A DNA stretch of 64,000 nt. Source: an uncultured Candidatus Saccharibacteria bacterium. GTDB taxonomy: Bacteria; Patescibacteriota; Saccharimonadia; Saccharimonadales; EFPC-124. The translations under genes were made by a program, and so were the position numbers. The notes below the pieces were generated by a model. The model had not been told where the DNA came from. It saw only the letters and a list, made by a program, of their open reading frames with translations, and made no database searches. Where the stretch lies: the NCBI GenBank assembly GCA_964405095.1, contig CAYOML010000001.1:23311-87310 (forward strand), written 5' to 3'. Of the stretch, positions 4,054 to 18,493 are shown one piece after another; positions within the stretch are counted from its first letter, which is position 1, and each line of letters begins with the position of its first letter.

Positions 4054-4128
4054 TGGCTGGGGAGGAGGGATTCGAACCCCCGAATGCTAGGACCAAAACC
4101 TAGTGCCTTACCACTTGGCGACTCCCCA
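4054..4128 (-). tRNA. tRNA-Gln (anticodon TTG)
   Basis: reverse complement folds as a cloverleaf: acceptor TGGGGAG/CTCCCCA, anticodon arm CTAGG-TTTTGGT-CCTAG, T-arm GGGGGTTCGAATCCCTC, CCA encoded. Confidence 0.85.
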
Positions 4129-4206: not shown

Positions 4207-5244
4207 TTGACAAAATGCTTATTTAACTTTGCTACCCAAATAGCACAAACTGTGTATAAGTTATATGCTTACCGGATGAGCATCACAGATAGATTAGGCG
4301 GAGCAGCTGAGTTTACGCCCCGACCGACGATTCCCATCGAACATCTCCCGCACGTTGTTGAGGCCCGCATTGCAGCTACCGATGATCTTAGTGTGCCGTT
4401 TTTTATACATATTGCCGGCGCGTCGGGAGCAGGCAAAACAAGTGCCGCCCGGGCACTCGAGCAGCTTGGCCGCCCAGTTGTGTCTTTTCCTATGGACAAC
4501 TACATGCTCGGCAGGCATTTTGTAAACGAGCTACAGGCTGCCGACCCGGCTTCGTATGGCTGGGACGATGTACAGAACTTTGACCTTGGCCTGATCGCCG
4601 AGCATCTGGCCATCCTTAGGGAGACAGGACAGGTCACTACGCCAGTTTTTGACCGCATGACCAGTGAACCTGCCAAGACGACGCTCACAATATCCGCCGA
4701 GCCCGGCAATATTGTCGTTGTCGAAGGTATCCATGCTTTATCACCGGTTTTGCACCACAATGCCTATATAACATTTTTTATCGACACGCCATTGCACGAC
4801 CGTCTGTGGCGTCGGGCGGTGCGCAACACATTGTACCCAGAATTTAGCAGCACCAATCTCGACAGTCTGCTATCTAACTACTTGCTGCGGGTAGAGCCTG
4901 GTTTTAGGGAGCATGCTTGGCTCCACCGGCAAAGTGCCGATGTCTGGGTGCTTAACCCAGCTTTGCCAACCAGGGACTATGAATATGCGCTAGATAGGGC
5001 ACCCGACGCCTCGCCAGATGCAACATACACGGCTATTTTGGTGCCACATAGCAATGTCGGTTCACTGCAGGCCAACGAACATATCTACTTGAGCCATGAT
5101 TTATCGGCGGCCACAGATGAAGCTAGGTTGAATATTCATTACGTTGTTGGCCACAAAGAACTCCTACAACACCCGTTATCTGCGAGCACCCTTGAGCTCC
5201 TCAGCGATCATTACGATGTGCAACCTCTTGCACCGATTGCATAA
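4207..5244 (+). CDS. uridine kinase / phosphoribulokinase family P-loop kinase
   Basis: Walker A IAGASGAGKTS, then DNY, FD, PVFD and VVEG blocks laid out as in Udk; the true start may be the internal Met (MSITDRL). Confidence 0.65.
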   Translation: MTKCLFNFATQIAQTVYKLYAYRMSITDRLGGAAEFTPRPTIPIEHLPHVVEARIAATDDLSVPFFIHIAGASGAGKTSAARALEQLGRPVVSFPMDNYMLGRHFVNELQAADPASYGWDDVQNFDLGLIAEHLAILRETGQVTTPVFDRMTSEPAKTTLTISAEPGNIVVVEGIHALSPVLHHNAYITFFIDTPLHDRLWRRAVRNTLYPEFSSTNLDSLLSNYLLRVEPGFREHAWLHRQSADVWVLNPALPTRDYEYALDRAPDASPDATYTAILVPHSNVGSLQANEHIYLSHDLSAATDEARLNIHYVVGHKELLQHPLSASTLELLSDHYDVQPLAPIA

Positions 5245-5294
5245 TCCGTCTTATAACAGTGTACTTTATCATAATTTGTGTTATAGTATTCGAG

Positions 5295-7136
5295 ATGTTT
5301 ATTGTTCCCGATTCAATCGAGCGCCGAGTAGGTGCCGAGGAAGCTGCTATTCAAAGCCGTCTCCGCCAACCGGTTCCTTTAGCGACCGAAACAACCTTAC
5401 AGGAAGTGTACGGCGCGGTTGAGGCAGATGTAGCACATGTTATTGCTGACACGTACGACCTGGCTGAGCCGGATGTAGTAATTGACGATATTCCCGGTCA
5501 CCTCGACCACATGGATATTGCCGTCCCAATGTTCCCATACGCCAGGGCAGCACGCACCAGTCCGACTGTAATTGGCCAGGTTGTCGGGTCTTCCCTAGGC
5601 CCCGTCTTGCCAATGGGAATCGACAGCGTCGAAACAACCGGCCCTTACGTCAATATGCGCTTAGACCGCCCGCAGCTGTTTGATGCCGGCCTCCGTGAGG
5701 TACTCACCCAGGGCAGCGCATATGGCAAAGGGAACGTCCAACACGGCAAAACCGTTTTTATTGATTATTCATCACCCAACATAGCTAAGCATCTCGGCAT
5801 CCAACATATCCCTACGACTATAGTAGGTGAGAGCCTGGCCCGTATTAATGAGGCCGAGGGCGCTCACGTTGTCCGCGCTAACTACCTGGGCGACTTTGGC
5901 ACACCATTCGGTAAGATACTGGTTGGCATCGATCGCTACGGCGACCCTGTAGAATTGGCTGCAGACCTAGTTGGCCAGATGCACACGCTGTACGTACGGG
6001 TAAACCGCGAGGTCAAAACCGACCCCGAACTAAGCGAGGCCGTTCGCGACGCATCTGCCCGCCTAGAAAACTCTGACCCCGAGGCAATGCGGGTCTGGGA
6101 AGCGGCCCGTGAGGCTAACATTGCCGAAAACGATGCTCTATACGAGCGTTTAGGCATTCACTTTGACACCACCGCTGGCGAAAGCTATTTTGCCAATTCT
6201 GGCCAAGAGCTAATCGACGAATTGCTAGACCAAGGCATCGCCGTCGAAGAGAACGGTGTTGTCGTTATACCCGCGTCAGACGATACTGATCCGCTTGTTT
6301 TGCGCAGATCCGATGGCTCAACACTGTATGGTACGCGTGATTTAGCCGCTCTGCGTTACCGCGTAGAACGCTACAATCCCGACATTATCAAATATGTCGT
6401 TGGCGCCGAGCAATCTGGCCATTTTGCAAGCGTATTTGCTGTAGCCGCCTTGTCGCGCATTATTAAAAGCCGCGACCAGGTGGAGCATGTGAAGCTCGGC
6501 TTATTTGCCGATCAGACTGGGCGAAAATTGTCATCTCGCAGTGGTGCTACCGACGCTTTTGCTGACCTTGTGGACAACGCCATTGCTACCGCCCACGACA
6601 GTTTGACCGAACGCTACACCGACCAACCGGAACGCCTGGCCGATGTGCCCGAACTGGCACGCAAGCTGGGCATCGCCGCTATTATGTACAGCGTTCTGCG
6701 CCGTGAGGCATCATCAAACACAGTTATTACCCCCGACCTAGGTGTAACCCGTGAAGCGGGTACCGCCGGCTACCTGCAATATACCCACGCCCGGGCGAAT
6801 AGCATCGTGGAACGAGCTGGCCTGTCGGACAATGAATTGCTCGATGGAGAATTGGCTTTTACCACAGACGCCGAGTGGAGGGTTGCCAGAGCAATTATGG
6901 CCTTCCCAGACAGCGTTGCCAGGGCTGCCGAAACAAACGGCCCACATTACATAGCTAAAGCGCTAGAAGACTTAGCTGGCGCGTTCAGCACTATGTACCA
7001 GGCGCGGGACATATCGATTTTAAGCGCCGAAGATCCCAATATCCGGCGTTCCCGCGTCGCCCTCACGCGTTCCGTGCAGGTTGTGTTACAAAACGGCTTA
7101 CAATTACTCAACATAGAAGCCCCCGACCGAATATAA
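5295..7136 (+). CDS. argS: arginine--tRNA ligase
   Basis: class I HIGH-type motif SSPNIAKHLGIQH, length and C-terminal anticodon-binding region typical of ArgS; start placed at ATG 5295, preceded by TATAGT (5282-5287), so likely leaderless; the track's longest ORF begins at 5259 (GTG). Confidence 0.9.
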   Translation: MFIVPDSIERRVGAEEAAIQSRLRQPVPLATETTLQEVYGAVEADVAHVIADTYDLAEPDVVIDDIPGHLDHMDIAVPMFPYARAARTSPTVIGQVVGSSLGPVLPMGIDSVETTGPYVNMRLDRPQLFDAGLREVLTQGSAYGKGNVQHGKTVFIDYSSPNIAKHLGIQHIPTTIVGESLARINEAEGAHVVRANYLGDFGTPFGKILVGIDRYGDPVELAADLVGQMHTLYVRVNREVKTDPELSEAVRDASARLENSDPEAMRVWEAAREANIAENDALYERLGIHFDTTAGESYFANSGQELIDELLDQGIAVEENGVVVIPASDDTDPLVLRRSDGSTLYGTRDLAALRYRVERYNPDIIKYVVGAEQSGHFASVFAVAALSRIIKSRDQVEHVKLGLFADQTGRKLSSRSGATDAFADLVDNAIATAHDSLTERYTDQPERLADVPELARKLGIAAIMYSVLRREASSNTVITPDLGVTREAGTAGYLQYTHARANSIVERAGLSDNELLDGELAFTTDAEWRVARAIMAFPDSVARAAETNGPHYIAKALEDLAGAFSTMYQARDISILSAEDPNIRRSRVALTRSVQVVLQNGLQLLNIEAPDRI

Positions 7137-7223
7137 AGCACTTGATTTTAACGGAGTATACACATAGAATGTTGTGCATCGGCTCATATAAGAAATTAAG
7201 ATACGCGAGGATAAGTTAGCCAG

Positions 7224-7261
7224 ATTGTGGAGTCATCCACAATCTGTACTTAATTTATAAT
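7224..7261 (+). promoter_or_regulatory. perfect 8-4-8 palindrome ATTGTGGA-GTCA-TCCACAAT overlapping the -35 region, then -10 TATAAT 7 nt before the ATG of the SHMT-like gene (leaderless promoter plus candidate operator)
   Basis: palindrome 7224-7243; TATAAT 7256-7261; ATG 7269. Confidence 0.45.
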
Positions 7262-7268
7262 TAGCATT

Positions 7269-8486
7269 ATGCAAGACAAATTAAAAAGTCGTATTCAAGC
7301 ACTCGAAGACAAATACGATAATTTGCTTCACCTGACCGCCAACGAGAATATCATCTCGCCCCTCGCCAAAAGGGCACTTAATTCAACATTGTCTAACCGT
7401 TACAGTATGACCAACAACAACGGGTCGTCTGTTGCCACCTTTGGACGAAATGCGGCCTACAAGAGCCTACTCGAAGTTGACGACTTATACGCCGAGGCTA
7501 CTGCGGCCTTAAATCAGATCCTCCACGCCGAATATTCCACGTTGCGCTGCCTAACCGGCGCCCATGCCATGGCCTGCGTCCTGCTGACAACGACTCAGCC
7601 GGGTGACACTGTTATGACCGTCCCATCCAAGCAAGGCGGGCACTTTTGTACCACTGGTATTCTGGATCTGACCGGCAGAAAGCACGTAGAGACTGTTTAT
7701 GATCCTGATAGTTTAACCTTCGACGCTAAAAAAACCGCCAAAGTCTGCAAGCAAAATAATGTCCGCGTCATCTACCTCGACACATCGGTCTATCTTAAAC
7801 CACACCCCATTAAAGAGTTGCGCGAACTTGTTGGCCCAGACGTACTAATCGTGTACGATGCCAGCCACACCGTAGGTCTGATGATGGGCGGTCAATTCCA
7901 GAGCCCATTGCAAGAAGGCGCCGACATTATTTCGGCCAATAGCCACAAAACCCTACCCGGACCTCACAAAGCAGTGGTCGCGTTTAAAGACCGTGATTTA
8001 GGCGAACGCTTCGAAAAAGAGATCCTCAAGAGCTTTGTATCGAGCACCCACACTAATTCGCTGCTTAGCCTGATTGTGACTATCTTTGAAATGCAAGAGT
8101 TTGGCCGCGATTATGCACAGCAAGTCATTAAGAACGCGCAGGCCCTTGGTGAATATTTGGCTGCCGAAGGTTTAGAAGTGCGCCGCGCTGATGCCGACCA
8201 CATTACCTACAATCACCAGGTACATTTGTACTCACCGCTGGGCCGCACAGAGACAGTTGAAGCATTTTTAGCCAGCAACATCAGCCTTGGTACCAGTGGC
8301 GCATTGGGCGACCGTCTGTTTATTAGGCTCGGCACCCAAGAGATTACGCGCCGCGGCTACAAAGAACTGGACATACAGCACATTGCCCAGATTATTGCAG
8401 CTGTGTTATCGGGCAAAGATGCAGCACAAAATGTTAAGCAATTACTAACCAGTCACACAAAAATCTTATACGGATATAGCGCATAA
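7269..8486 (+). CDS. serine hydroxymethyltransferase-family PLP enzyme with a divergent active site
   Basis: clear homology blocks to GlyA (LTANENIISP vs LIASENYTSP; QPGDTV; SHKTLPGP vs THKTLAGP carrying the PLP lysine; ITRRGYKE), but the Tyr/Arg-rich YAEGYPGKRYYGG block is replaced and the Arg after the PLP lysine is His. Confidence 0.75.
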   Translation: MQDKLKSRIQALEDKYDNLLHLTANENIISPLAKRALNSTLSNRYSMTNNNGSSVATFGRNAAYKSLLEVDDLYAEATAALNQILHAEYSTLRCLTGAHAMACVLLTTTQPGDTVMTVPSKQGGHFCTTGILDLTGRKHVETVYDPDSLTFDAKKTAKVCKQNNVRVIYLDTSVYLKPHPIKELRELVGPDVLIVYDASHTVGLMMGGQFQSPLQEGADIISANSHKTLPGPHKAVVAFKDRDLGERFEKEILKSFVSSTHTNSLLSLIVTIFEMQEFGRDYAQQVIKNAQALGEYLAAEGLEVRRADADHITYNHQVHLYSPLGRTETVEAFLASNISLGTSGALGDRLFIRLGTQEITRRGYKELDIQHIAQIIAAVLSGKDAAQNVKQLLTSHTKILYGYSA

Positions 8487-9760
8487 TGAACAAGGCTCAA
8501 CTACACACCGATTCTTACACCGATTTTCGGTATTATCTAGATAACGTGTATTCACAAAAAACCGAGCAACAGGTTCTGGGGCTCTCGGTTGGTTATCCAA
8601 CATCAGGCCAATTCCCGCTGCCGAACGAGATCCTGGAGCAGCTTGTCCCATTCGAAGATGGCCAAGAAAAGCCACGGCCAGGTTACGGTTGGGAAGCCGG
8701 TTCCCAGACGGTTCGTGAGGCTATTCTTGAGTACGAGAATCTGGCCCACGGCACCAGATACACCATGAAGAACGTCTGCATTGTCGCCGGCGCTACTTAC
8801 GGCCTAAACCGCATCCTGGAATATATGTTTACCGACCCATTGTTCGACAAAAGCAAAGACGAATTACTTGTGGCCGCACCGACATTTTACCGTATGTTGG
8901 GCCGTGTTGAGAGTTACGCCAAAGTCGTAAATGTCACCGGCCAAGAAGACAATAACTTCCAGGTAACAGTTGATGATATTCTTGCCGGCTTAACTCCGCG
9001 CACCAAAGCCGTCTTTTTGCTTAACCCCAGCAACCCAACTTACTTGTATTACCCCAATGATTTTCTTGCCGAGTTGGTTGCCAAGCTCAGCGAGCGCCAG
9101 GTATACCTGATAATCGACGAATCTGGCGACGCCTATGTGAACGATGGTCACAACAATCATAGCTATCACCGCATGACCCTGGCTCTTCAGAACCCGTACG
9201 TCATCCGCATAGTAACCGCATCTAAGAAATATCTACTGGCCGAATATCGAATTGGTTACGTGCTTGCTGGCGAAGACGTCATTGGTACCAAATTGCACGG
9301 TTTTATAAAGTTGATCGGCGATGACATGAGCAACCCGCCGCTTGCTGCCAACGATGCCTGGCTGGCTTTGTTGCAACACGAAATACTCCTGTTGCAAAAC
9401 AAACCATGTCCAAACACCGGTTGTGATTTTGCCGAAAAGTTCCGTGATGCAACCGCCAAGATGTCACGGCTGCGCGAATTGACGCTTAATGCCCTGGCTC
9501 ACACCGATCATATCCGTCGCGTCATCATGCCGGACGCTAACTACAACCTGTGTTTTGCATTTGATTCCAGCAAGGACTACGATGACATTCAGGTGTTCGA
9601 CGAAATGCTGCAAAAACATAACCTGGCACTTGTGCCCGGTTCGGGCTTTGGCATCGACAAAAAACTCCTGTACTTCCGCCTGACATTCGCCATTCGGGAA
9701 ACCGAGCTGCGCGAAGGCCTGGCGGCTCTGCAAGCCTTTAGTAAAAGTGGGTATTTATAA
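8486..9760 (+). CDS. class I/II (fold-type I) PLP-dependent aminotransferase
   Basis: LLNPSNPT and TASKKY (PLP lysine) motifs; length about 420 aa. Confidence 0.8.
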   Translation: MNKAQLHTDSYTDFRYYLDNVYSQKTEQQVLGLSVGYPTSGQFPLPNEILEQLVPFEDGQEKPRPGYGWEAGSQTVREAILEYENLAHGTRYTMKNVCIVAGATYGLNRILEYMFTDPLFDKSKDELLVAAPTFYRMLGRVESYAKVVNVTGQEDNNFQVTVDDILAGLTPRTKAVFLLNPSNPTYLYYPNDFLAELVAKLSERQVYLIIDESGDAYVNDGHNNHSYHRMTLALQNPYVIRIVTASKKYLLAEYRIGYVLAGEDVIGTKLHGFIKLIGDDMSNPPLAANDAWLALLQHEILLLQNKPCPNTGCDFAEKFRDATAKMSRLRELTLNALAHTDHIRRVIMPDANYNLCFAFDSSKDYDDIQVFDEMLQKHNLALVPGSGFGIDKKLLYFRLTFAIRETELREGLAALQAFSKSGYL

Positions 9761-9772
9761 AGGGTAATAACT

Positions 9773-10384
9773 ATGAATACAGCCTCAACCATTCTTGAAA
9801 CATCTCTAGGCGCTTTTAAATTGTCGTACCATTCACTTGGCGACATGCAAGCCGTCAGCATGTCGATTGGCGATATTACCAGCGGCACACCGCTGTTGCG
9901 TATCCATTCTTCCTGTCTATTCAGCGAAGCGTTGTGCGCCGTCGACTGCGACTGTAAACTACAGCTGGACAGCGCTCTGGAGTACATCAAAAAAGCCGGC
10001 AAAGGCGTTATTGTGTATCTGTACCAAGAGGGCAGGGGTGTCGGCCTCGAAAACAAGATCCGCGCCGTCGAAATAATGCGCGTCGATAACTGCGACACGG
10101 CCACGGCCTTCGAAAAGCTAGGTTTCGAGCTCGACCCACGCGACTATAGTCTGGCTATCAAGGCACTTAAAGATTTACACGTTTCTAAAGACGTCCTTTT
10201 GATGTCTAATAACCCGCGCAAATTCAATGCACTAGAAACAGCCGGGTATGACGTAGTTGAGCAAGTTGTGCTGTCGTACTACGCTAATCCGACTGTTCAT
10301 CATTACTTACGCTCCAAAGAAGCCAAACTTGGCCACAAGATACAGTGGAGCGCAATTAAGACAACTACCCGGCGAGTGTCTTAA
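9773..10384 (+). CDS. GTP cyclohydrolase II (RibA-like), stand-alone
   Basis: RIHSSCLFSEALCAVDCDC zinc-binding cysteines, YLYQEGRGVGL and SNNPRK blocks as in RibA; no ribB/ribD/ribH/ribE adjacent. Confidence 0.8.
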   Translation: MNTASTILETSLGAFKLSYHSLGDMQAVSMSIGDITSGTPLLRIHSSCLFSEALCAVDCDCKLQLDSALEYIKKAGKGVIVYLYQEGRGVGLENKIRAVEIMRVDNCDTATAFEKLGFELDPRDYSLAIKALKDLHVSKDVLLMSNNPRKFNALETAGYDVVEQVVLSYYANPTVHHYLRSKEAKLGHKIQWSAIKTTTRRVS

Positions 10385-12092
10385 AGACCGGCTTGGAACC
10401 ATCCCAGTGCTTGGCGTATGGGTTCAGGTACAAGTCGGGGTAATGCACGGCGATTTCTATTAGCATAGGTGCAGCCTGCTTGGTGGCACCGGCCAGGGCC
10501 TTTTGTAGTTCTGCTGGTGTGGTTGCACGGGATGCTTTTACGCCGTTTGCTTCGGCCAGTTTTACAAAGTCAACATTCATGAATTCGGTAGCAGCTACGT
10601 CCTGTGTATGCTCATCACCGGTCAACTGGTAGCGGCGAATCAGGGCGTTGGCATTGTTATTCAGCAATAGAACAGTGACCGGCAGGTTGTTACGCACGAT
10701 TGTTTCAAGATCACCACTGTTAGAATGGAACCCGCCATCGCCCGCAATCAATACGACGCGCTTGTCGGATTGTGACAGGGCGGCCCCAATGGCCATACCA
10801 ATGCCTGTGCCAAACGATGACAAACCTGCCGAAGTTAGATAGTGATGTGGTTCCTGAGGCATAAAGTAAGTACCAACTACATGGCGATGCATACCAATGT
10901 CGTTGGCAACAATGTAATTGTAGTCGCCATAGGCATCGTTAAGCGCCTGAATCGCTTGTGGGACAGTCACACCTTCACCACTATCTTTCGCCTGCATGTC
11001 GGCCGTCATTCTGTTCACGATAGTGTCGCGAGCCGTGGCAGCATCTTTGGCGATCGCTTCCCGGGGCTTAACAGCGACTACCAACTGGCTAAGCTGCCCA
11101 GCCAAATTGCCAGTTAACTTAACTTCGGGCACAAATGCTTTGTTAGTACGGTTATCAAAATAGTTCAGGCTAATAATCTTTTTAGCCGAACCAAATTTCC
11201 AGCCGTTAGGATGGTGCTCAATCATGTCATAGCCGAGCAACAACAGGGTGTCGGCGGTTTCAAAAATAGACTGCAGCACGTGTCCTTCAAACAAAGCATC
11301 CAGGTAACCATTGAGCGTGCCCAGGTTCAGCGGATGGCCAAATGGCAAAATACCTTTGGCAGAGTAGGTAGCAATCGCCGGGATGTTAAGCTTTTCGAGC
11401 AAAGGGCGTAGTGTCGCGGCAGCTTCTGGCACTTTAGCAACGGTATCGCCCAGTACAATAATCGGGTTTTTAGCACCGTCCAAAAGCTTAGCAGCTTCGG
11501 CAATGAGCTTATCTTGCATATTGGTGCTACCGACGGTGTAAGCCAAAGGCAGTGCAGTATGATCAACTAGCCATTTAGCGGCTAGGTCTTCGTCCACGAC
11601 TTCGTCCATCAAGTTAATTGGCAACGAAATGAAGGCAGGGCCAAAAGGATACGCAAGCATGTCGGTAAAGGCGCGGTCAACGGCTACAGCCAGCGCATCC
11701 AAAGTAGTAGGCTCGTAGCTGCCTTTAGTGAGCGGGCGAGTCACACTCACTGCGTCCAAACATTGGTGGGCGTTGTTGTAGTCAATGCTGTGTGTTTCTA
11801 GCTGTGCAGCAATAAACAATACCGGGTGACGATCTTGTGCAGCCGTCGCCATAGCGGTCATCATATGGGTAACGCCCGGCCCTAAGGTGCTAAAACATAC
11901 TTGTGGACGGCCCGTTAGGCGGGTTGCCGCTACCGCAGATGTACCAGCGCTTAATTCATTACGAAACAGATAGAACTTCTGGGAATGATCTTTGTCGAAC
12001 AACAGGCTTGCTGCTTCACGTCCCAGAACACCATACACACGATCAACTCCGTAAGTTGCCAATAGCTTTTGTAGAAAATCAGAACCTTTCAC
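10365..12092 (-). CDS. thiamine pyrophosphate-dependent enzyme, acetolactate synthase large-subunit-like
   Basis: 575 aa with N-terminal Pyr domain, central domain and C-terminal TPP-binding GDGGF...NN motif. Confidence 0.8.
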   Translation of the reverse strand: MKGSDFLQKLLATYGVDRVYGVLGREAASLLFDKDHSQKFYLFRNELSAGTSAVAATRLTGRPQVCFSTLGPGVTHMMTAMATAAQDRHPVLFIAAQLETHSIDYNNAHQCLDAVSVTRPLTKGSYEPTTLDALAVAVDRAFTDMLAYPFGPAFISLPINLMDEVVDEDLAAKWLVDHTALPLAYTVGSTNMQDKLIAEAAKLLDGAKNPIIVLGDTVAKVPEAAATLRPLLEKLNIPAIATYSAKGILPFGHPLNLGTLNGYLDALFEGHVLQSIFETADTLLLLGYDMIEHHPNGWKFGSAKKIISLNYFDNRTNKAFVPEVKLTGNLAGQLSQLVVAVKPREAIAKDAATARDTIVNRMTADMQAKDSGEGVTVPQAIQALNDAYGDYNYIVANDIGMHRHVVGTYFMPQEPHHYLTSAGLSSFGTGIGMAIGAALSQSDKRVVLIAGDGGFHSNSGDLETIVRNNLPVTVLLLNNNANALIRRYQLTGDEHTQDVAATEFMNVDFVKLAEANGVKASRATTPAELQKALAGATKQAAPMLIEIAVHYPDLYLNPYAKHWDGSKPVFKTLAG

Positions 12093-12217
12093 GACACATA
12101 CTCCAGAATACCGCTATTTTGGGGTACCCATCATGGCCTCCCAAGTCGCGGTTAAATTATATTTCGTTAATAGTACACCAGCAGGCAGTATAAGTGAATA
12201 GTGTTCTTATCTGATTA

Positions 12218-13156
12218 TTAGGCAAGTTGGCCAAAGGTGTTGGTGGCGATTGGCTGTCTGGCGTTGTATTTGGCTACACAATAGCTAAGGATTGCCTGCC
12301 TAAAGCGCCATTTGCTGTCATCGCCAGAAGCCTCAGCCTGGTCCTTATCGCCTGCGAGTGCCCAAACAGCCCTAAGCAATACCACGTCATTGGTATAACT
12401 ACTAAGCTGTTTAATGTTATGTTTTGCAGCCGTGTCGTCAATAACCCGCATGTAGTTACCCAGTTGGTCGTCGGTTAAGTCGTACGATAGCTTTGACTCA
12501 CCATTCTTGTCTTTAAAATCCCAGAAGCGTCCGAATAGTACACCAGCTAGCACATCATAACCAACAGGACCTGTAAAATTATGCTCAAAATCAATGACAC
12601 CGCCTTTTAGGATATTGAATGGTGTCAGGTCACCATGGGTTGGGGCGCTGGGCAACTTGCTAAGGCGCCCGGTGATAGTATCGAGAGCGGTTTGGAGTGC
12701 AGGGGTATCAAACTGCGGATTTTCGCCCAATGCCTTAGACAGACGAATCAACACCGGTATGTCGCTTGCTTGCTCGGTTACATTCTGTAATTGTGCCCGT
12801 AAAAAGTTTGCGGCCACCTGGCAGTAGGCGTTAAACGACTCACTGCTGACTTTGCCCTGTGCCATGTACTCATTTTTGAATATGCGTCCAAATGTTTGCT
12901 CACCCAATGATTCTTCAATAAAGTACGTTGTGCCATCAACTTCGCCGTCGTCCAGAATGCTGGCAACAGGAAACCCACTAGCCTTAAGGCTTTTAGCAAA
13001 AGCCACTTCGGGCTGCAGAATACTACTCGGTCCAATCCGTAGATACTGAGTACCATCATGTGATACAAAAATCTGGCCCTTATTTAGCAGGCGATTGCGG
13101 ATCAGGCGCCAGTTGCTAGCACTGTTTGGTAAAAAAGTGTCTGGATCGTAGTTCAT
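12218..13156 (-). CDS. aminoglycoside phosphotransferase / choline kinase family kinase
   Basis: Brenner motif HGDLTPFNIL and IDFEHNFTGPVGYDVL (DxD) typical of APH/ChoK-fold kinases. Confidence 0.7.
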   Translation of the reverse strand: MNYDPDTFLPNSASNWRLIRNRLLNKGQIFVSHDGTQYLRIGPSSILQPEVAFAKSLKASGFPVASILDDGEVDGTTYFIEESLGEQTFGRIFKNEYMAQGKVSSESFNAYCQVAANFLRAQLQNVTEQASDIPVLIRLSKALGENPQFDTPALQTALDTITGRLSKLPSAPTHGDLTPFNILKGGVIDFEHNFTGPVGYDVLAGVLFGRFWDFKDKNGESKLSYDLTDDQLGNYMRVIDDTAAKHNIKQLSSYTNDVVLLRAVWALAGDKDQAEASGDDSKWRFRQAILSYCVAKYNARQPIATNTFGQLA

Positions 13157-13770
13157 GAGTTGTGCAGAACTCCCAACTCGATTAGTTGTATCACGGTATT
13201 ATCGTACGACGAAAATAGAATTGGCGTATAGCCGCAGTCTTTTGCTGAACTCAGACTAAGTTCGGAATCATCAATAAAAATGAGTTCTTTCATTGTGGCA
13301 CCAAGCGCATCGGCAAATAGTTGGTAGGCCTGTGGGTCGGGCTTCATAAACCCGGTTTCGGCCGATACCTGAAACACATAAAAGTGAGCGGCTGTACCGT
13401 TATCGCGCATTGCTTGGGCGTTAGCAAGATTGTTGTTGCTTAAAAGCCCAACTTTGTAACCAAGCCGTTTTAATTCATCAACTAGCTGCAGCATTTGCAC
13501 GCTGGGCGGCCCGCCAAAAACTTCATGGCTCAGAGCCATGACCTCATCGAGCCTATCTGAATGGCCCAAATCTTTTAAAACAGCCGACCAAAGCTCAGCC
13601 CACGAGATATTACCAACATTAATTTTATGCCGATGCCGGTAATATGCATGCTTGTACTCTCCTGGGCTCACGTTGAGCATGGTGCATAGACGTTCGCGGA
13701 ATAAGGTTTTGGGGTGGCCCTGAATGACGCCACCATAGTCAAAACCAATTGCCATAAATCTTGGGGTAAT
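13153..13770 (-). CDS. HAD-superfamily hydrolase (phosphatase-like)
   Basis: motif I IGFDYGGV, motif II LLSNN, motif III KPDP, motif IV FIDDS; the track's longer N-terminus (to 13908) is probably an over-extension and the start is likely at the internal Met; overlaps the kinase gene by 4 nt (operon). Confidence 0.65.
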   Translation of the reverse strand: MTPRFMAIGFDYGGVIQGHPKTLFRERLCTMLNVSPGEYKHAYYRHRHKINVGNISWAELWSAVLKDLGHSDRLDEVMALSHEVFGGPPSVQMLQLVDELKRLGYKVGLLSNNNLANAQAMRDNGTAAHFYVFQVSAETGFMKPDPQAYQLFADALGATMKELIFIDDSELSLSSAKDCGYTPILFSSYDNTVIQLIELGVLHNS

Positions 13771-13929
13771 TGCCATGCCCGGTATTATGACATACGTCAG
13801 TGCTACGACAATAATATGAGTCAGGATCGAATCTATAAAATAAGCTTCGCGGTCACTGATTAAAGGTGTGATCTGCGGCGTCCGGGTCGAGGACCTTAAA
13901 GACCCCATCGTGCAACTTTGGGATAGTGG

Positions 13930-14904
13930 TCATTTGCGGTACCGCCGGGCCCGGGAATAGGCTAGGGTGTAAGCCTGCTTAAAGTTAGCTTTAAACTGTG
14001 ATGGATGAGTTGCACGCCAAGCAATAAAGCGCGTTGTAAGTGCATAGATAATCAGCGCATATATAACACCGAGCACAACATCGAAGACATAATGTTCACC
14101 AAGGTAAACGATCCCGACCCACACCGAAGCTGGGTAGAACATCGCCCACCACACTCGGCGCCAACCAAACATCATATTTAGGAACAACACAAATAACATG
14201 GGGTAAGCAGCGTGCAGCGATGGCACGGCAGCAACTGCGTTGGGCGAAATGTTGGCATAAACTTCCGAGAAATTTGTAACACCCATGGCATACCACACGT
14301 CGCTGGAAATCCTGTGGATAGGTTCTATATAGCCCATATTAGATGCCATCCAGGGCGGCGCTGCTGGGAAGATAATATAAGTAACGAAGGCCATGAAAGA
14401 CAAAGCTACAAGCGCCGCAACAAACGGCCAGTAGAGCTTTTCGCGCACTTTCCAAATGAGCACAGCCAGGAGTAGGGGAGCTAAAAAGTGCAGTGTGTAC
14501 AGGAAGTAGAAGTAAAAATCGTACCATTGCACATGTCCATGCCACCACCAACTTTGCAGCACGGAGGTTGGCAGATTACCACCAAACCAAACACGGTCGA
14601 TGTTAATCATTTCGTAAAAGTGAACGTTGTGGTTAAGATCGTCGGCTATGCCTCGGAATGAGTCATAGGCAAGTAGAAGTAGGATAAACGGCCCAAAACG
14701 GGTAATAAACATGCGCGCCTGGCCAAACACAAAAAACACACCAAGCAGAACTAAGAAGAGGGTATCTGGCGTCCAAAAATTACGCTGTAAAGTAATAAAG
14801 ACCACTACAGTGACAACCGTTAAGCAACGTAGCCAAAAAACTGCTGGATGTCGTCGCTTGAGTGTTTGCGCCCTGCGCCACAGGATGCGGATTTTATTTT
14901 GCAT
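13930..14904 (-). CDS. polytopic membrane protein, PAP2-superfamily-like
   Basis: multiple TM helices; PSLHAAYP and HYVFD (HxxxD) resemble PAP2 motifs 2 and 3; weak. Confidence 0.4.
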   Translation of the reverse strand: MQNKIRILWRRAQTLKRRHPAVFWLRCLTVVTVVVFITLQRNFWTPDTLFLVLLGVFFVFGQARMFITRFGPFILLLLAYDSFRGIADDLNHNVHFYEMINIDRVWFGGNLPTSVLQSWWWHGHVQWYDFYFYFLYTLHFLAPLLLAVLIWKVREKLYWPFVAALVALSFMAFVTYIIFPAAPPWMASNMGYIEPIHRISSDVWYAMGVTNFSEVYANISPNAVAAVPSLHAAYPMLFVLFLNMMFGWRRVWWAMFYPASVWVGIVYLGEHYVFDVVLGVIYALIIYALTTRFIAWRATHPSQFKANFKQAYTLAYSRARRYRK

Positions 14905-15041
14905 TAACCTGATTATAACTAATACAACCGATTATTATGCTCGATTGAGTATTGTTTATTTGACAAGAATCGGTGTATGCTAATTACATAAAACCAACAT
15001 AAGCTTATTAATAAAACTTCCTAACTTTTAAGAGGGGTCGT

Positions 15042-15944
15042 GTGAGTAGTGGGAACAATGAGCCTCAAAGCTTAGTGCGTGGTTTTGAGAATAAAAAACT
15101 GCTAACAATACTTTGTATTTTGCTCGTAGCCGCAATTATTGCGGCTATTTGGGTGTTAGTGCTAGATAACCTACGCCGAAATAATTCTGTTACTTCTTTA
15201 TGGAGCGCCTACACCGGCCTAGCAACCAACACTACAATACCGATAACAGCTACCGACCTGAATCAGATAGACCAACGGAACACATGGGGCACGGATGAGT
15301 TGTCTGGCCTAACCCAACAAGTGATAAGCCTAATACCCGGACACCTAAGCGTCGTCGGGTTGCAGGGGCAAGAGGGTAAACCGGGCAAGGATGGCCAGGA
15401 TGGTGTTAATGGACGCAATGGGACCGATGGGGTCGATGGAGTCGCGGTGTGTGCTTTTGGACAATGTGCCTCACTGCAAACTACAGACCCAACCACCTTA
15501 GAGGTAGGTAGTATCAACGTCGACGGTACTGTCAGTGCTAGTTTCTTTGAGGGCGATGGCTCGAATCTCGATAACCTAAATGCTTCGAGAATCAATGTTG
15601 GGACGCTAGACTCGAGTCTATTCCCGAGTAATCTTACACTGCCTGGTTCGTTGACAATTGGTTTAGATGGAACATCAATATCACAAGTAAGAGTTTTTAC
15701 CCCAACACTAAACCCATCAAGTGTTGCTGCTGCTAGTACGGCCGAAGAGATTTATGCTGTCAGTGGGTTGGTTACAACCGATATTATTTACGTCAACAAG
15801 CCAACGTATACCGCTGGCTGTGGCATAGTTAACGCACGGGTAAGCGCCACTAACACTTTGGCGCTTACTTGGATGAATGCACAGACACTGCTTAGCTGTG
15901 ATCCACCGTCAGAAGTTTATAATATCGTAGCTATCAGAAGTTAA
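15042..15944 (+). CDS. membrane-anchored protein with a collagen-like Gly-X-Y triple-helix repeat and a C-terminal globular domain
   Basis: GTG start with SD AAGAGGGG; N-terminal TM; nine consecutive GXY triplets GLQGQEGKPGKDGQDGVNGRNGTDGVDG. Confidence 0.6.
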   Translation: MSSGNNEPQSLVRGFENKKLLTILCILLVAAIIAAIWVLVLDNLRRNNSVTSLWSAYTGLATNTTIPITATDLNQIDQRNTWGTDELSGLTQQVISLIPGHLSVVGLQGQEGKPGKDGQDGVNGRNGTDGVDGVAVCAFGQCASLQTTDPTTLEVGSINVDGTVSASFFEGDGSNLDNLNASRINVGTLDSSLFPSNLTLPGSLTIGLDGTSISQVRVFTPTLNPSSVAAASTAEEIYAVSGLVTTDIIYVNKPTYTAGCGIVNARVSATNTLALTWMNAQTLLSCDPPSEVYNIVAIRS

Positions 15945-16033
15945 AGCCAGCAGTTTCGAAGCTCAACTATGAAGCGTTAGATTATTGAGTCGTATATTTA
16001 CCTGATCACTATTCAGTGTTATAATATAACCTC

Positions 16034-17008
16034 ATGAGTGAGTATGAAACCGATGGGATTGAGCCGACACTGGAGCAGTTGCTGAAGTGGCGCCCTACTA
16101 GACGCAAACTTATCAAACTTGGCCTGCTCACTGCTGTTGCCGCAGATACAGCAGGCGGCTTCGCTGTCGAGCGGGGAATGAATCACCACCCCGAGGCTGA
16201 CGTATACCTGAACCCTGATAGCGACCAAACAATTATTATTGGCGGTGGCTGGGCCAATGATGGCCGAGTACTAGGCGAGATGCTAGCGCCGGTACTAGGT
16301 GACTTTGCTAACATCATCGCTATAAAATACGCCGACGATAATGTCGACTCAACCGAACTTCACAATTTAGTTTTTAGTACAATGCGCGAAAATGGTTTGC
16401 GTAACCCTTCGTGGTATCTAAATTCGTCGGCCGGTTTATTCTTGGCCGGATCCATGGCGCTGCACGCTCACGACCCCGCTAGCCAGCAAGAGTTTGGCCC
16501 GACTCAGATAGCCGTGTTTCATGACTCGCCGCACAGCGAGGCCGATTTAAACAACCAAGGTTGGTTTTTCGCTAATACTCGCGCCGATGCACTACTAAAA
16601 CGCAGTCGAGTATTTAACTGGCTATTTGGACTCGGCATGCGCGCCACACTTAGAGGCGCCGATTTCCGCGACCCAGCCTATGTAAGTTACGCCGACGCCC
16701 AAGCTATGAAAGACGGCATGGCGGCTGCCGACTCAATCACGGCTAGCGCTCAAATGGCCGGGATGCGCGATATAAACCTGCCAGACGGTTATTTGCATGG
16801 TGCAGCTCGGCGCTTTTTCTTCGTGCATAGTGAAGGCGAATCAAATGATACTAACGACTCTGCCAGCGCTTTGCGAGGCTGGCGCGGCACCTGTGGAGAG
16901 GTCGAAGAAATTATCGACCCTTACGCTCCAGCCAACAAACATGCTCCCAGCACATACCCGCATATCTTGCGCACTATCTTTTACACCAACCTTACTGAGC
17001 GATCTTAG
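16034..17008 (+). CDS. hypothetical protein with twin-arginine-like signal (TRRKLIKLGLLTAVAA); possible secreted alpha/beta-fold protein
   Basis: RR motif followed by a hydrophobic stretch; leaderless extended -10 (TGtTATAAT) 8 nt upstream. Confidence 0.4.
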   Translation: MSEYETDGIEPTLEQLLKWRPTRRKLIKLGLLTAVAADTAGGFAVERGMNHHPEADVYLNPDSDQTIIIGGGWANDGRVLGEMLAPVLGDFANIIAIKYADDNVDSTELHNLVFSTMRENGLRNPSWYLNSSAGLFLAGSMALHAHDPASQQEFGPTQIAVFHDSPHSEADLNNQGWFFANTRADALLKRSRVFNWLFGLGMRATLRGADFRDPAYVSYADAQAMKDGMAAADSITASAQMAGMRDINLPDGYLHGAARRFFFVHSEGESNDTNDSASALRGWRGTCGEVEEIIDPYAPANKHAPSTYPHILRTIFYTNLTERS

Positions 17009-17727
17009 TAGTTTTCCGGATCGTACTGATTGTGCACTTCGAGTATTGGTATTCGGTCTTCGGTAATATCTTTCTTATCATGAAATCGATCGGCGCTGCC
17101 TGCAAAGCTCAACTCCTGGCTAGCATACTCTTCTTGAGTCATCCAAGCGTTACGACCGCCCTCAAACTCTTCTACTAATATGCCATGCGGGTTATTGGCC
17201 GTTACAACAAAGAAGATTTTATCTTCCAATAGTTCGCCGGTTTGCTTGTTGAAATCTGTTTTGTGATAAATAGCTTCGTAAGCAAGATCGGCTTTCAGAC
17301 CCGTTTCTTCTGCAAGTTCGCGTGCTGCAGCGTCCAGTATAGATTCGCCCCAGCGGATCTTGCCAGTGGGGCGGCCCCAGTAGCCATAATATGGCTGTTT
17401 AAGGCGCTGCTGTACAAGTTGCTTGCCGTCTTTGCGGCGGACCATTAAGCAAACTGCAACTTTGGGCTGGCGTTCAACTTGGCGGGCATCGGTGTCAAAG
17501 CGGTTAGCGAATTCTTTGCCCTTAAAGGTTAAATGATACGCACCTTCTTTGTTTTTGCCCACAAAATCTTCTTCTAACAACTGTTTCAGATAAAAAGAGA
17601 AGTGGTCACTGGTTAATTCACTAGCTTTTTGCAGCTCCTTAAAGCGAGCATTGGGCTTAAACAGCAATACTTGCAGTATCGCCACGTGTGCTGGGTGGAG
17701 TTGTTTGTCGATTGCCATATAGGTCAC
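17005..17727 (-). CDS. winged-helix DNA-binding domain fused to a Nudix hydrolase domain
   Basis: Nudix box GKIRWGESILDAAARELAEETGL (Gx5Ex7REUxEExGU); N-terminal wHTH-like region; paralog of the 17780..18493 gene. Confidence 0.7.
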   Translation of the reverse strand: MTYMAIDKQLHPAHVAILQVLLFKPNARFKELQKASELTSDHFSFYLKQLLEEDFVGKNKEGAYHLTFKGKEFANRFDTDARQVERQPKVAVCLMVRRKDGKQLVQQRLKQPYYGYWGRPTGKIRWGESILDAAARELAEETGLKADLAYEAIYHKTDFNKQTGELLEDKIFFVVTANNPHGILVEEFEGGRNAWMTQEEYASQELSFAGSADRFHDKKDITEDRIPILEVHNQYDPENY

Positions 17728-17779: not shown

Positions 17780-18493
17780 TTAGAACTGCTCGGCCGAGTA
17801 TTCGACGCTGTTCTCTAAAAAGGTATGGTCGCGGCCCAGCATGTCCTGCTCGATCTGCTGGCTAGTGTATTTTTTGTCGCGTGCGGCAATCTCGGCCTCG
17901 GTGGCCCAAAAGTTGCGACCACCCTCAAACGCGTCCATTAGTGTGCCGCGCGGCCTGGTGCAATGCACAACATGGAACAGCTTGTCTTCGAGTAATTCGC
18001 CGGATTCTTTTTGGTAGGCGTGTTCATGGTAAAGGCCTGCGTAGCGATAATCGGCCTCGAGGCCCGTTTCTTCATGCAGTTCACGCTCGGCGGCGGCGAT
18101 CACCGTCTCACCCCAGCGTATTTTGCCGGATGGAAAGCCCCAAAACCCAAAGTAGGGATGCTTCATGCGCTCTTGAATAAGATAGTACTTGATGCCCGAT
18201 TTGATCTTTTCGATGCCCAAGATTACGGCGCTCTTGGGCTGTTTTTCGATGGTGTTGTTATCGGTGTCTAGCTTGTTAGCATACTCCTTACCACGCGGAG
18301 TTAGACGGTATTTGCCTCGAGCCACTTTTTCGACTAAGTCTAGCGCAACCAGTTTAGCAATATGAAAGTTGAAGTGGTCACTACTCAGGCCTGTTGGTTT
18401 TTGTAGCTCGGCGTAGCCGGCTTGCGGCCTAAACAGCAATTCGCGCAGGATCGAGGTTTGGGCCCCGTGGATGTTAACTTCCAGGCTCATCAT
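17780..18493 (-). CDS. winged-helix DNA-binding domain fused to a Nudix hydrolase domain (paralog)
   Basis: Nudix box GKIRWGETVIAAAERELHEETGL; same architecture as the 17005..17727 gene. Confidence 0.7.
   Translation of the reverse strand: MMSLEVNIHGAQTSILRELLFRPQAGYAELQKPTGLSSDHFNFHIAKLVALDLVEKVARGKYRLTPRGKEYANKLDTDNNTIEKQPKSAVILGIEKIKSGIKYYLIQERMKHPYFGFWGFPSGKIRWGETVIAAAERELHEETGLEADYRYAGLYHEHAYQKESGELLEDKLFHVVHCTRPRGTLMDAFEGGRNFWATEAEIAARDKKYTSQQIEQDMLGRDHTFLENSVEYSAEQF

Follow-up and report, generated by a model that had tools for sequence, protein, structure and literature searches.

A rare gene cassette linking a transaldolase-like enzyme and a tyrosine-less GTP cyclohydrolase II paralog in a Saccharibacteria genome

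The 64,000-nucleotide stretch of contig CAYOML010000001.1 from an uncultured "Candidatus Saccharibacteria" bacterium that was analyzed here (the window) encodes, between positions 7224 and 14904, a divergent protein of the serine hydroxymethyltransferase (SHMT) fold, an aminotransferase, a stand-alone GTP cyclohydrolase II (GCH II), a thiamine diphosphate (ThDP)-dependent enzyme, a kinase of the APH fold, a HAD family phosphatase, and a PAP2 family membrane protein. Which of these genes belong together, and what could they be making? A first-pass annotation had read all seven as an accessory set resembling a small biosynthetic gene cluster (BGC). The comparisons described below show that the genes for the SHMT-fold (transaldolase-like) protein, the aminotransferase, the GCH II, and the ThDP enzyme form a conserved cassette, whose most likely product is neither a vitamin nor a standard amino acid but a secreted small molecule derived from GTP, threonine, and a sugar phosphate. 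With a little better than even confidence, this is a rare, horizontally shared cassette for a small nitrogen-rich metabolite, probably a secreted antimetabolite, of which the window carries a reduced but intact copy. The accessory character of the cassette and the diversion of the GCH II product are retained from the initial interpretation, whereas its view of the GCH II as bona fide, the acetolactate synthase (ALS) label of the ThDP enzyme, the analogy to toxoflavin synthesis, and the inclusion of the APH and PAP2 genes as conserved members have been abandoned.

A conserved four-gene cassette

A profile scan of 185,579 species genomes for the transaldolase-like protein yielded 80 loci; these and the loci found in other ways are referred to here by L numbers. 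In tblastn searches with the window proteins, genes for the aminotransferase, the GCH II, and the ThDP enzyme were found beside the transaldolase-like gene in L002/L003, L004, and L005, and genes for the aminotransferase and the GCH II in the Paenibacillus locus L008. Neighborhood look-ups added L082 (Paenibacillus), L085, L096 (Bacillus cereus), and L104. Genes for the transaldolase-like protein, the aminotransferase, and the GCH II, in some loci joined by the ThDP gene, are adjacent in Saccharibacteria (L002, L005, and L085), in other Patescibacteria (L004, L093, and L104), and, outside that group, in two Paenibacillus genomes (L008 and L082) and in B. cereus (L096). The closest relative of the window cassette is L085, with 65 to 72% identity.

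The aminotransferase family is tiny, with only 21 members among 1.84 billion 50%-identity representatives at E ≤ 1e-30. Wherever a related locus has sufficient sequence on its flanks, the aminotransferase gene adjoins that of the transaldolase-like protein, the GCH II, or both. A metagenome scan with this protein returned eight loci only, several of them with the whole gene set, and a search of the PLSDB plasmid proteins with the B. cereus aminotransferase gave no match.

When 85 transaldolase-like proteins were placed in a simple neighbor-joining tree, those encoded beside aminotransferase and GCH II genes all fell into one clade, with the Bacilli nested beside Patescibacteria. The sole other member of this clade, L006, is encoded on a 3.7-kb contig that is too short to show its neighbors. 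The cassette-linked clade has a single origin. More than 70 other transaldolase-like homologs from Patescibacteria have no aminotransferase or GCH II neighbors; this family, which lacks the folate site (see below), is widespread in Patescibacteria without the cassette (L009 to L081, about 70 loci), and its members are often annotated as DegT-type aminotransferases.

Several copies of the cassette are broken. In L094 (positions 5000 to 16000), nearly every gene is split into two or three open reading frames (ORFs), and the ThDP gene is divided between two ORFs in L002, L003, and L088; these could be either pseudogenes or indel errors of the assemblies. A CBASS-type defense pair (a SAVED-domain effector and an SMODS/DncV-like nucleotidyltransferase, L082, 1664 to 3887) is found a few kilobases upstream of the Paenibacillus cassette.

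Predicted activities of the conserved enzymes

The SHMT homolog had been described as keeping the pyridoxal phosphate (PLP)-binding lysine (SHKT) and the C-terminal Arg but losing the folate/substrate loop and the Arg that follows the lysine, and this description holds. In the alignment with E. coli GlyA, residues K227, H125, D197, and R353 of the window protein match the PLP lysine (K229), His126, Asp200, and Arg363, respectively, and Y55, H203, and H228 are also kept. In contrast, Glu57, Tyr64, and Arg235 are replaced by Met, Ala, and His, and the folate site has further lost Phe257-Pro258 (Leu-Lys in the window protein) and Asn347 (Ser). The position of GlyA Tyr65 is occupied by Tyr in the window protein and by Tyr, Ala, or Phe across the clade. 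The canonical 454-residue SHMT of a related Saccharimonadales genome (L098, 1306 to 2670) keeps all of the tested folate-site residues; given that this relative has a normal glyA, the window protein is taken to be something else. GlyA, RibA, and HemA of E. coli served as references; the alignments with them gave the expected pattern, and at every site GlyA agrees with the L098 protein.

What else it might be is suggested by its closest matches. In NCBIfam, the window protein scores 307 bits with the fluorothreonine transaldolase model and 195.6 bits with the SHMT model (cut-off, 335 bits), both below cut-off, and its best sequence match in the PDB, i.e., the nearest solved structure, is the obafluorin transaldolase ObiH. 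The catalytic residues of ObiH are H131, D204, and K234, with Y55 and R366 stabilizing the PLP (PMC10495429). Their equivalents (H125, D197, K227, Y45, and R353) are invariant in the transaldolase-like family; since SHMTs carry these residues as well, they are necessary but insufficient for calling a transaldolase. A further comparison is that with PbTTA, from a metagenome-assembled genome of Parachlamydiales, and KaTTA, two distant SHMT-like proteins that are strict L-threonine transaldolases (PMC10495429). KaTTA, an active enzyme from a predicted valclavam cluster, is the one with which the clavam protein OrfA groups (PMC10495429). PbTTA shares the motifs TANEN, YDASH, and NTHKTFPGP with the window protein and is about 36% identical to it, with a score of 110 bits compared to 35 bits for the canonical SHMT, although the identity is approximate, as the PbTTA sequence came from a supplement damaged in optical character recognition. 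The window protein is nearer to the characterized transaldolases than to SHMT. It is probably an L-threonine transaldolase or an aldolase that forms a β-hydroxy-α-amino acid.

The GCH II is not bona fide, as it departs from RibA in one catalytic residue. Its three zinc cysteines and the YLYQEGRGVGL and NNPRK blocks are intact, as the first-pass annotation had it; indeed, Cys54/65/67, Arg128, and the QEGR and NNPxK blocks are all kept and are invariant among the homologs. However, in a gap-free alignment, the NKIRAY segment of E. coli RibA corresponds to NKIRAV in the window protein, which places Val at the position of Tyr105. Met, Ile, Leu, or Val is found at this position in the nearest ∼100 of the 120 best database homologs, and Tyr appears only farther out. 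The protein matches PDB entry 2bz0 with an E value of 3.8e-36; among the RibA hidden Markov models (HMMs), it exceeds the cut-off of the subfamily model NF001591 (157.5 versus 148) but falls below that of the equivalog TIGR00505 (153.3 versus 205.85). Tyr105 is reportedly required for the complete reaction to the diaminopyrimidine, in the work of Ren et al. from 2005 and of Spoonamore and Bandarian from 2008. The latter authors are also said to have found that Streptomyces coelicolor SCO6655, with Met at the Tyr site, halts at the formylated product, a formamidopyrimidine (FAPy). By analogy, the window enzyme is predicted to open the imidazole ring of guanine and to stop at the FAPy nucleotide instead of the diaminopyrimidine. 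A review assigns to the third GCH II paralog of S. coelicolor a new, non-flavin function and states nothing more (PMC13151069).

The gene neighborhoods support diversion of the GCH II product, as originally proposed. No ribB, ribD, ribH, or ribE was detected nearby in domain scans of the cluster, its flanks, and the unrecognized ORFs of the window, the remaining ORFs (ATP synthase and similar) having been recognized by reading, and rib genes are absent from all related cassette loci as well. Across phyla, it is with transaldolase-like and aminotransferase genes that the GCH II gene is associated, and no linkage to rib genes was seen; on these grounds, and given the loss of Tyr105, a role as the entry enzyme of riboflavin synthesis was rejected. 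The proposed parallel with toxoflavin was rejected as well, since neither the window cluster nor any related locus contains a counterpart of ToxA (a methyltransferase), ToxC, ToxD, or ToxE (RibD-like). The closest homolog of the window GCH II is encoded in L098 (10001 to 10609; 73% identity). A separate BGC-like locus of Kitasatospora sp. NPDC085895 (L097, 4159 to 13709) pairs a HAD protein with a Met-type GCH II and also encodes a TauD dioxygenase, an ATP-grasp enzyme, a carbamoyltransferase, a SAM_HAT_N (chlorinase/fluorinase-like) protein, and a condensation domain of nonribosomal peptide synthetases (NRPSs). GCH II paralogs that lack the Tyr may be a general tool of secondary metabolism.

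The aminotransferase is, judging by its sequence, a PLP enzyme of the class I/II fold that constitutes a very small, cassette-specific family. Its lysine motif TASKKY and the C-terminal Arg are invariant among the homologs.

The ThDP enzyme, initially labeled ALS-like, has a far better match in N2-(2-carboxyethyl)arginine synthase (CEAS; PDB entry 1upa), with 379 bits versus 212 for the best ALS. The alignment with CEAS spans 534 positions (query residues 10 to 551) at 40% identity and an E value of 4e-112. Among the ALS models, the best, NF006187, gives 304 bits against a cut-off of 509, the others are further below, and no equivalog cut-off is reached. All cassette copies keep the CEAS-type segments HQCLD, DIGxxRH, LTSAGxSSFG, and AGDGGFHSNSGDLET, as well as RNE, with the catalytic Glu, and GDGGFH...NNN, the ThDP/Mg motif. 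By these similarities, the protein is closest to CEAS, and ALS/acetoin chemistry has been downgraded accordingly. As the versions from Bacillus, Paenibacillus, L089, and L104 have no such gene, it is an add-on to the cassette rather than part of its core. It is confined to copies from Patescibacteria, which lack the ATP-grasp ligases found in some of the others (see below). The CEAS-like enzyme may therefore be an alternative decorator of a free amine. A literature search for CEAS returned the clavulanic acid context only. With the cassette, CEAS-type ThDP chemistry would have a second natural setting, apart from the clavams.

Fuller versions, precedents, and alternatives

Most copies of the cassette are larger than the one in the window. 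They also carry a type I phosphodiesterase, a HAD protein of ∼200 residues encoded between the aminotransferase and the GCH II, one or two extra genes for glutamyl-tRNA synthetase (GluRS), a conserved protein of ∼225 residues, and a glutamyl-tRNA reductase (GlutR)-like protein that keeps the catalytic-Cys motif STCLR and is often fused to a complete GluRS (875 to 887 residues). Such fusions are found in L082 (14882 to 17545), L096 (10601 to 13228), L089 (12532 to 15165), and L093 (11027 to 13675); they lack the C-terminal dimerization domain, and their organisms or contexts are unrelated to heme synthesis. This architecture suggests tRNA-dependent formation of an amino aldehyde for a secondary pathway. 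The extra GluRS genes, or ArgRS in the window, might conceivably be self-resistance copies against an inhibitor of aminoacyl-tRNA synthetases. The ∼225-residue protein has no match in Pfam or the PDB, even when used as a profile; its SSDIDIY...E.FID motif invites the guess that it might have a nucleotidyltransferase fold.

The outer genes differ from host to host. The B. cereus cassette, a cluster of 10 genes (L096, 5206 to 18365), has at its end an MFS transporter and a pair of ATP-grasp ligases with the LAL_C2 domain, as would be expected if an unusual amino acid were formed first and a ligase then built it into a peptide for export; the window CEAS-like enzyme may play an equivalent, amine-decorating role. 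The Paenibacillus cassette includes three GT2 genes and an ABC-2 exporter. Exporters combined with ligases or glycosyltransferases are the usual look of a secreted specialized metabolite. L089 also has an added ATP-grasp ligase, and there a GFO/IDH/MocA oxidoreductase (8762 to 9940) takes the position of the transaldolase-like gene upstream of the aminotransferase-HAD-GCH II genes. This layout recalls the dehydrogenase-aminotransferase-phosphatase logic of the kanosamine and aminonucleoside pathways and hints at an aminotransferase acting on a keto-sugar phosphate.

Set against these, the window has fewer genes than the larger cassette, but its copy is intact, and the minimal layout recurs. 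In L004, which belongs to another lineage (39 to 49% identity), the same four genes are contiguous and are followed by a cassette-type HAD gene and a gene for a uridine-kinase-like P-loop kinase, and the adjacency of the kinase and aminotransferase genes is seen again in L091 and L092. A uridine-kinase-like gene also lies upstream of the window cassette. Its product scores 78 bits with the NCBIfam uridine kinase model, under the cut-off of 180 bits, and its homologs (29 to 49% identity) are encoded directly beside the cassette aminotransferase or the ThDP and HAD genes in L004, L091, and L092. It is probably an accessory member of the minimal variant. The window HAD phosphatase is a probable cassette member as well: with the YihX-like motif I FDYGGV, it was picked up, as a distant member, when a profile of the HADs from the cassettes was iterated, and similar YihX-like HADs adjoin transaldolase-like genes in L043, L069, and L026.

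The two remaining genes of the originally proposed set are not conserved with the cassette. The APH-fold protein has the HGDxxxxN loop and the metal-binding Asp, with D176, N181, and D189 invariant. Its AlphaFold2 model (pLDDT 91) matches APH(3'), APH(2''), and APH(4) at E values of about 1e-8, with low TM-scores of 0.44 to 0.59 and 11 to 15% identity, these being generic matches to the APH fold, and is that of a putative small-molecule kinase. No homolog is present in any related cassette locus. Its homologs, at most 38% identical, come from Patescibacteria only and have unrelated neighborhoods; in three Patescibacteria genomes, their contexts revealed no HAD, PAP2, or cassette link. What ties this gene to the cassette is its operon position alone, between the HAD and ThDP genes in one probable operon. 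The PAP2 protein has no homolog near any related cassette either, promoter-like sites are present in the ∼150 nucleotides that separate its gene from the likely start of the HAD gene, and it is probably a separate transcription unit unrelated to the cassette. A sphingolipid-like or head-group pathway involving the PAP2_3 protein is thus unsupported, as that gene is not conserved with the cassette.

If the predicted activities are correct, the pathway might run as follows. The SHMT-fold enzyme without a folate site would transfer the glycyl unit of L-threonine to an aldehyde, yielding a β-hydroxy-α-amino acid and acetaldehyde. The aminotransferase could either act on an amino acid to yield the keto acid from which this aldehyde is formed or process the β-hydroxy amino acid, as OrfC would in alanylclavam synthesis. 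The Tyr-less GCH II would take pyrophosphate off GTP and open the imidazole ring to give 2-amino-5-formylamino-6-ribosylamino-pyrimidinone 5'-phosphate. The CEAS-like enzyme might turn a triose phosphate into acryloyl-ThDP and then N-carboxyethylate a free amine of an intermediate; alternatively, it could provide the aldehyde by decarboxylating a keto acid, the part that ObiG plays for ObiH. Phosphate handles would be removed by the YihX-like HAD phosphatase and added by a kinase or two (the uridine-kinase-like and the APH-fold proteins), and the purine-derived and amino-acid halves would be joined. A specific product, with the FAPy nucleotide joined to the transaldolase-made β-hydroxy amino acid, an aldehyde supplied by the GluRS-GlutR fusion in the full versions, CEAS-type N-carboxyethylation in Patescibacteria, and an antimetabolite action against hosts or competitors, can be offered as a speculation that is doubtful in its full detail. 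If true, it would be a biosynthetic logic not seen before, and it would mean that Saccharibacteria-type episymbionts produce a new class of purine-derived amino-acid antimetabolites and that tRNA-dependent amino-aldehyde synthesis takes place outside heme biosynthesis.

Among the known systems, the 5S-clavam clusters (alanylclavam and valclavam; Streptomyces and Kitasatospora) are the best precedent, with the ObiG/ObiH pair of obafluorin coming second. The 5S-clavam clusters bring together the same three families, namely, CEAS (ceaS1), the SHMT-like OrfA, and the aminotransferase OrfC. In 2008, Zelyas et al. reportedly described the aldolase and the aminotransferase as building the alanyl side chain on an aldehyde. 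However, the cassette loci lack β-lactam synthetase, clavaminate synthase, proclavaminate amidinohydrolase, and OAT. Unlike the 5S-clavam clusters, they always carry a Tyr-less GCH II and a HAD protein, their hosts are Patescibacteria and Bacilli rather than actinomycetes, and the identity to CEAS is only 40%. A clavam cluster as such was rejected, as none of the domains of the first three enzymes was found among the annotated neighbors in the window or in the related loci. ObiG and ObiH are a pair of a ThDP-dependent keto-acid decarboxylase and an L-threonine transaldolase. In contrast to ObiG, the window ThDP enzyme is CEAS-like and not phenylpyruvate decarboxylase-like, the Bacillus and Paenibacillus versions lack a ThDP gene, and the cassette has no NRPS, no chorismate-derived aryl pathway, and no β-lactone chemistry.

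Other likenesses are more limited. The non-riboflavin GCH II paralogs SCO6655 and ToxB are likewise encoded by stand-alone RibA-like genes in accessory clusters; an aliphatic residue replaces the catalytic Tyr in both SCO6655, where it is reportedly Met, and the window protein, where it is Val, while the relatives of the latter have Met, Ile, or Leu. LipK and GlyU of the liponucleoside antibiotics are also L-threonine transaldolases of the SHMT fold in a nucleoside-derived pathway, but the cassette has no UMP dioxygenase (LipL-type) or other source of a nucleoside 5'-aldehyde, and its nucleotide would be a ring-opened guanine instead of uridine. Resemblance to the bacilysin-type clusters, with an L-amino-acid ligase and an MFS exporter, is seen in the B. 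cereus version and is absent from the window.

Several observations weigh against the reading of the cassette as a source of a secreted nitrogen-rich metabolite. No member has a known product or activity, and no published description of this gene combination was found in the library searched. The FAPy prediction leans on the reported SCO6655 work, 40% identity between ThDP enzymes leaves the reaction unfixed, and the ThDP gene is missing from both Bacilli versions, L089, and L104. The L098 GCH II is an orphan, with none of the other cassette genes within 10 kb. Compared to L085, the window lacks the phosphodiesterase, the internal HAD protein, the GlutR-like gene, the ∼225-residue protein, and the extra GluRS, and it has no exporter or ligase. 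The absence of those five genes, the broken copies in L094, L002, L003, and L088, and the L098 orphan, which shows that the cassette can fall apart, would also suit a decaying relic, i.e., a nonfunctional remnant from which the tRNA-dependent genes have disappeared along with the genes for the phosphodiesterase and the internal HAD, with the APH and PAP2 genes as unrelated insertions. This is unlikely, as none of the four window ORFs is truncated or has lost any of the catalytic residues that were checked, and they are arranged in a layout that recurs in L004 and, in part, in L091 and L092. At the other extreme, a chance assembly of ordinary primary-metabolism genes (RibA, a divergent SHMT, a general aminotransferase, and ALS) could point to the NF001591 score, to public records that name the homologs "GTP cyclohydrolase II RibA," and to the generic HMMs that call the other genes SHMT and ALS. 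It is very improbable and already largely refuted by the Tyr105-to-Val replacement, by the loss of folate-site residues in a protein whose relative L098 has a canonical SHMT alongside, by the failure to reach the ALS equivalog cut-offs when CEAS is by far the best match, and by the same linkage in three phylum-level groups, with no other rib gene in the scanned window ORFs.

The product could also be a cofactor-like compound for the cell's own use, such as an unusual pterin, lumazine, flavin analog, or one-carbon carrier, formed when the ring-opened GTP product condenses with a carbonyl unit from the ThDP and PLP enzymes. Flavins and lumazines are entered through ring opening by GCH II, the condensation of diaminopyrimidines with dicarbonyls occurs readily, and HAD and NUDIX proteins are typical companions of such pathways; three NUDIX genes lie beside the L085 cassette and two genes of the HTH-NUDIX type are 2 kb from the one in the window. 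Yet the patchy and rare distribution is a poor fit, Bacillus and Paenibacillus already carry a normal rib operon, exporters and peptide ligases flank the versions from these genera, and no cassette locus encodes a RibD-like reductase/deaminase, a lumazine synthase, or a formamidase, which makes this option quite unlikely. Decoration of the cell envelope, with an unusual phospho-amino or amino-acid head group put on a lipid or glycopolymer, would account for the PAP2_3 phosphotransferase-like membrane protein, the kinase, and the phosphatase next to the window cassette, and for the GT2 genes interleaved with the Paenibacillus cassette behind a TagGH-like ABC-2 exporter. It is improbable all the same: the PAP2 and GT2 genes are not conserved in the other versions, what B. 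cereus has in their place is a pair of ATP-grasp ligases plus an MFS transporter, the APH homologs occur in unrelated contexts, and the PAP2 gene looks like a separate transcription unit.

A secreted metabolite remains the preferred product. The proposal that this is an accessory, BGC-like enzyme set outside primary metabolism is upheld by the loss of the folate site and of Tyr105, the CEAS match, and the cross-phylum linkage. Small BGCs are a kind already known, but this enzyme set is unusual, and BGCs are uncommon in this host group. Patescibacteria have tiny genomes in which biosynthetic clusters are rare, so one that is conserved and also occurs in Bacillus and Paenibacillus points to symbiont-host or competition chemistry. 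The cassette also draws attention to a large, unstudied clade of GCH II paralogs without the catalytic Tyr to what would be a new branch of threonine transaldolases, useful as biocatalysts, and, through its fuller versions, to the GluRS-GlutR fusions. As the B. cereus and Paenibacillus copies are found in culturable strains, the product can be sought directly.

Layout of the locus and flanking genes

All seven ORFs of the initial description were reproduced from the ORF list, and Pfam agrees on the family of each (Table 1). Identical gene calls were obtained on the independent public contig L001, and the composition across the cassette region is unremarkable. The genes are tightly packed, as noted in the first pass, with overlaps of 1 nucleotide between the SHMT-like and aminotransferase genes and 4 nucleotides between the APH and HAD genes; the convergent GCH II and ThDP genes overlap by 20 nucleotides. 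The HAD gene probably starts at 13776 or 13755, since its homologs begin there and promoter-like sites are found just upstream, and either start leaves the gap of ∼150 nucleotides to the PAP2 gene mentioned above.

TABLE 1 Genes and predicted signals in and around the window cassette
Feature	Position	Strand	Family or remarks
Uridine-kinase-like P-loop kinase with C-terminal extension	4207-5244	+	NCBIfam best match, uridine kinase
Arginyl-tRNA synthetase (ArgRS)	5259-7136		Between the uridine-kinase-like gene and the cassette
Putative leader of the plus-strand operon	7142-7246	+	Promoter-like site 7142-7170, hairpin 7221-7246 (consensus scan)
SHMT-like protein	7269-8486	+	SHMT-fold PLP enzyme; PF00464, 78.5 bits
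Aminotransferase	8486-9760	+	Class I/II aminotransferase fold; PF00155
GCH II paralog	9773-10384	+	PF00925, 132.8 bits
ThDP enzyme	10365-12092	-	CEAS-like; Pfam family confirmed
APH-fold kinase	12218-13156	-	PF01636
HAD phosphatase	13153-13908	-	PF00702/PF13419; YihX-like
PAP2_3 membrane protein	13930-14904	-	PF14378, 85.8 bits

The leader hairpin has a perfect 11-bp stem (CAGATTGTGGA-GTCA-TCCACAATCTG) and is located 22 nucleotides 5' of the SHMT-like gene and 3' of ArgRS, so that it could be either the ArgRS terminator or a leader/attenuator. An Rfam scan of the window identified three tRNAs only and no family for this hairpin.

The rest of the window encodes housekeeping functions, including ATP synthase, GluRS, a sortase, two-component systems, and tRNAs, and the nearest relatives of the window are labeled Saccharibacteria or Saccharimonadales. 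The HTH-NUDIX genes mentioned above (17005 to 17727 and 17780 to 18493) are tandem paralogs whose products carry a winged-helix DNA-binding region at the N terminus in addition to a NUDIX hydrolase domain; they have no homology to the three NUDIX genes beside the L085 cassette at an E value of 1e-6. Immediately downstream of PAP2 and in the opposite orientation, a gene at 15042 to 15944 codes for a 300-residue protein in which a transmembrane segment at the N terminus is combined with a short G-x-y repeat of the collagen type. A tRNA-Gln(ttg) gene (4054 to 4128), directly 5' of the uridine-kinase-like gene, marks the left edge of the cassette region and is a possible integration landmark.

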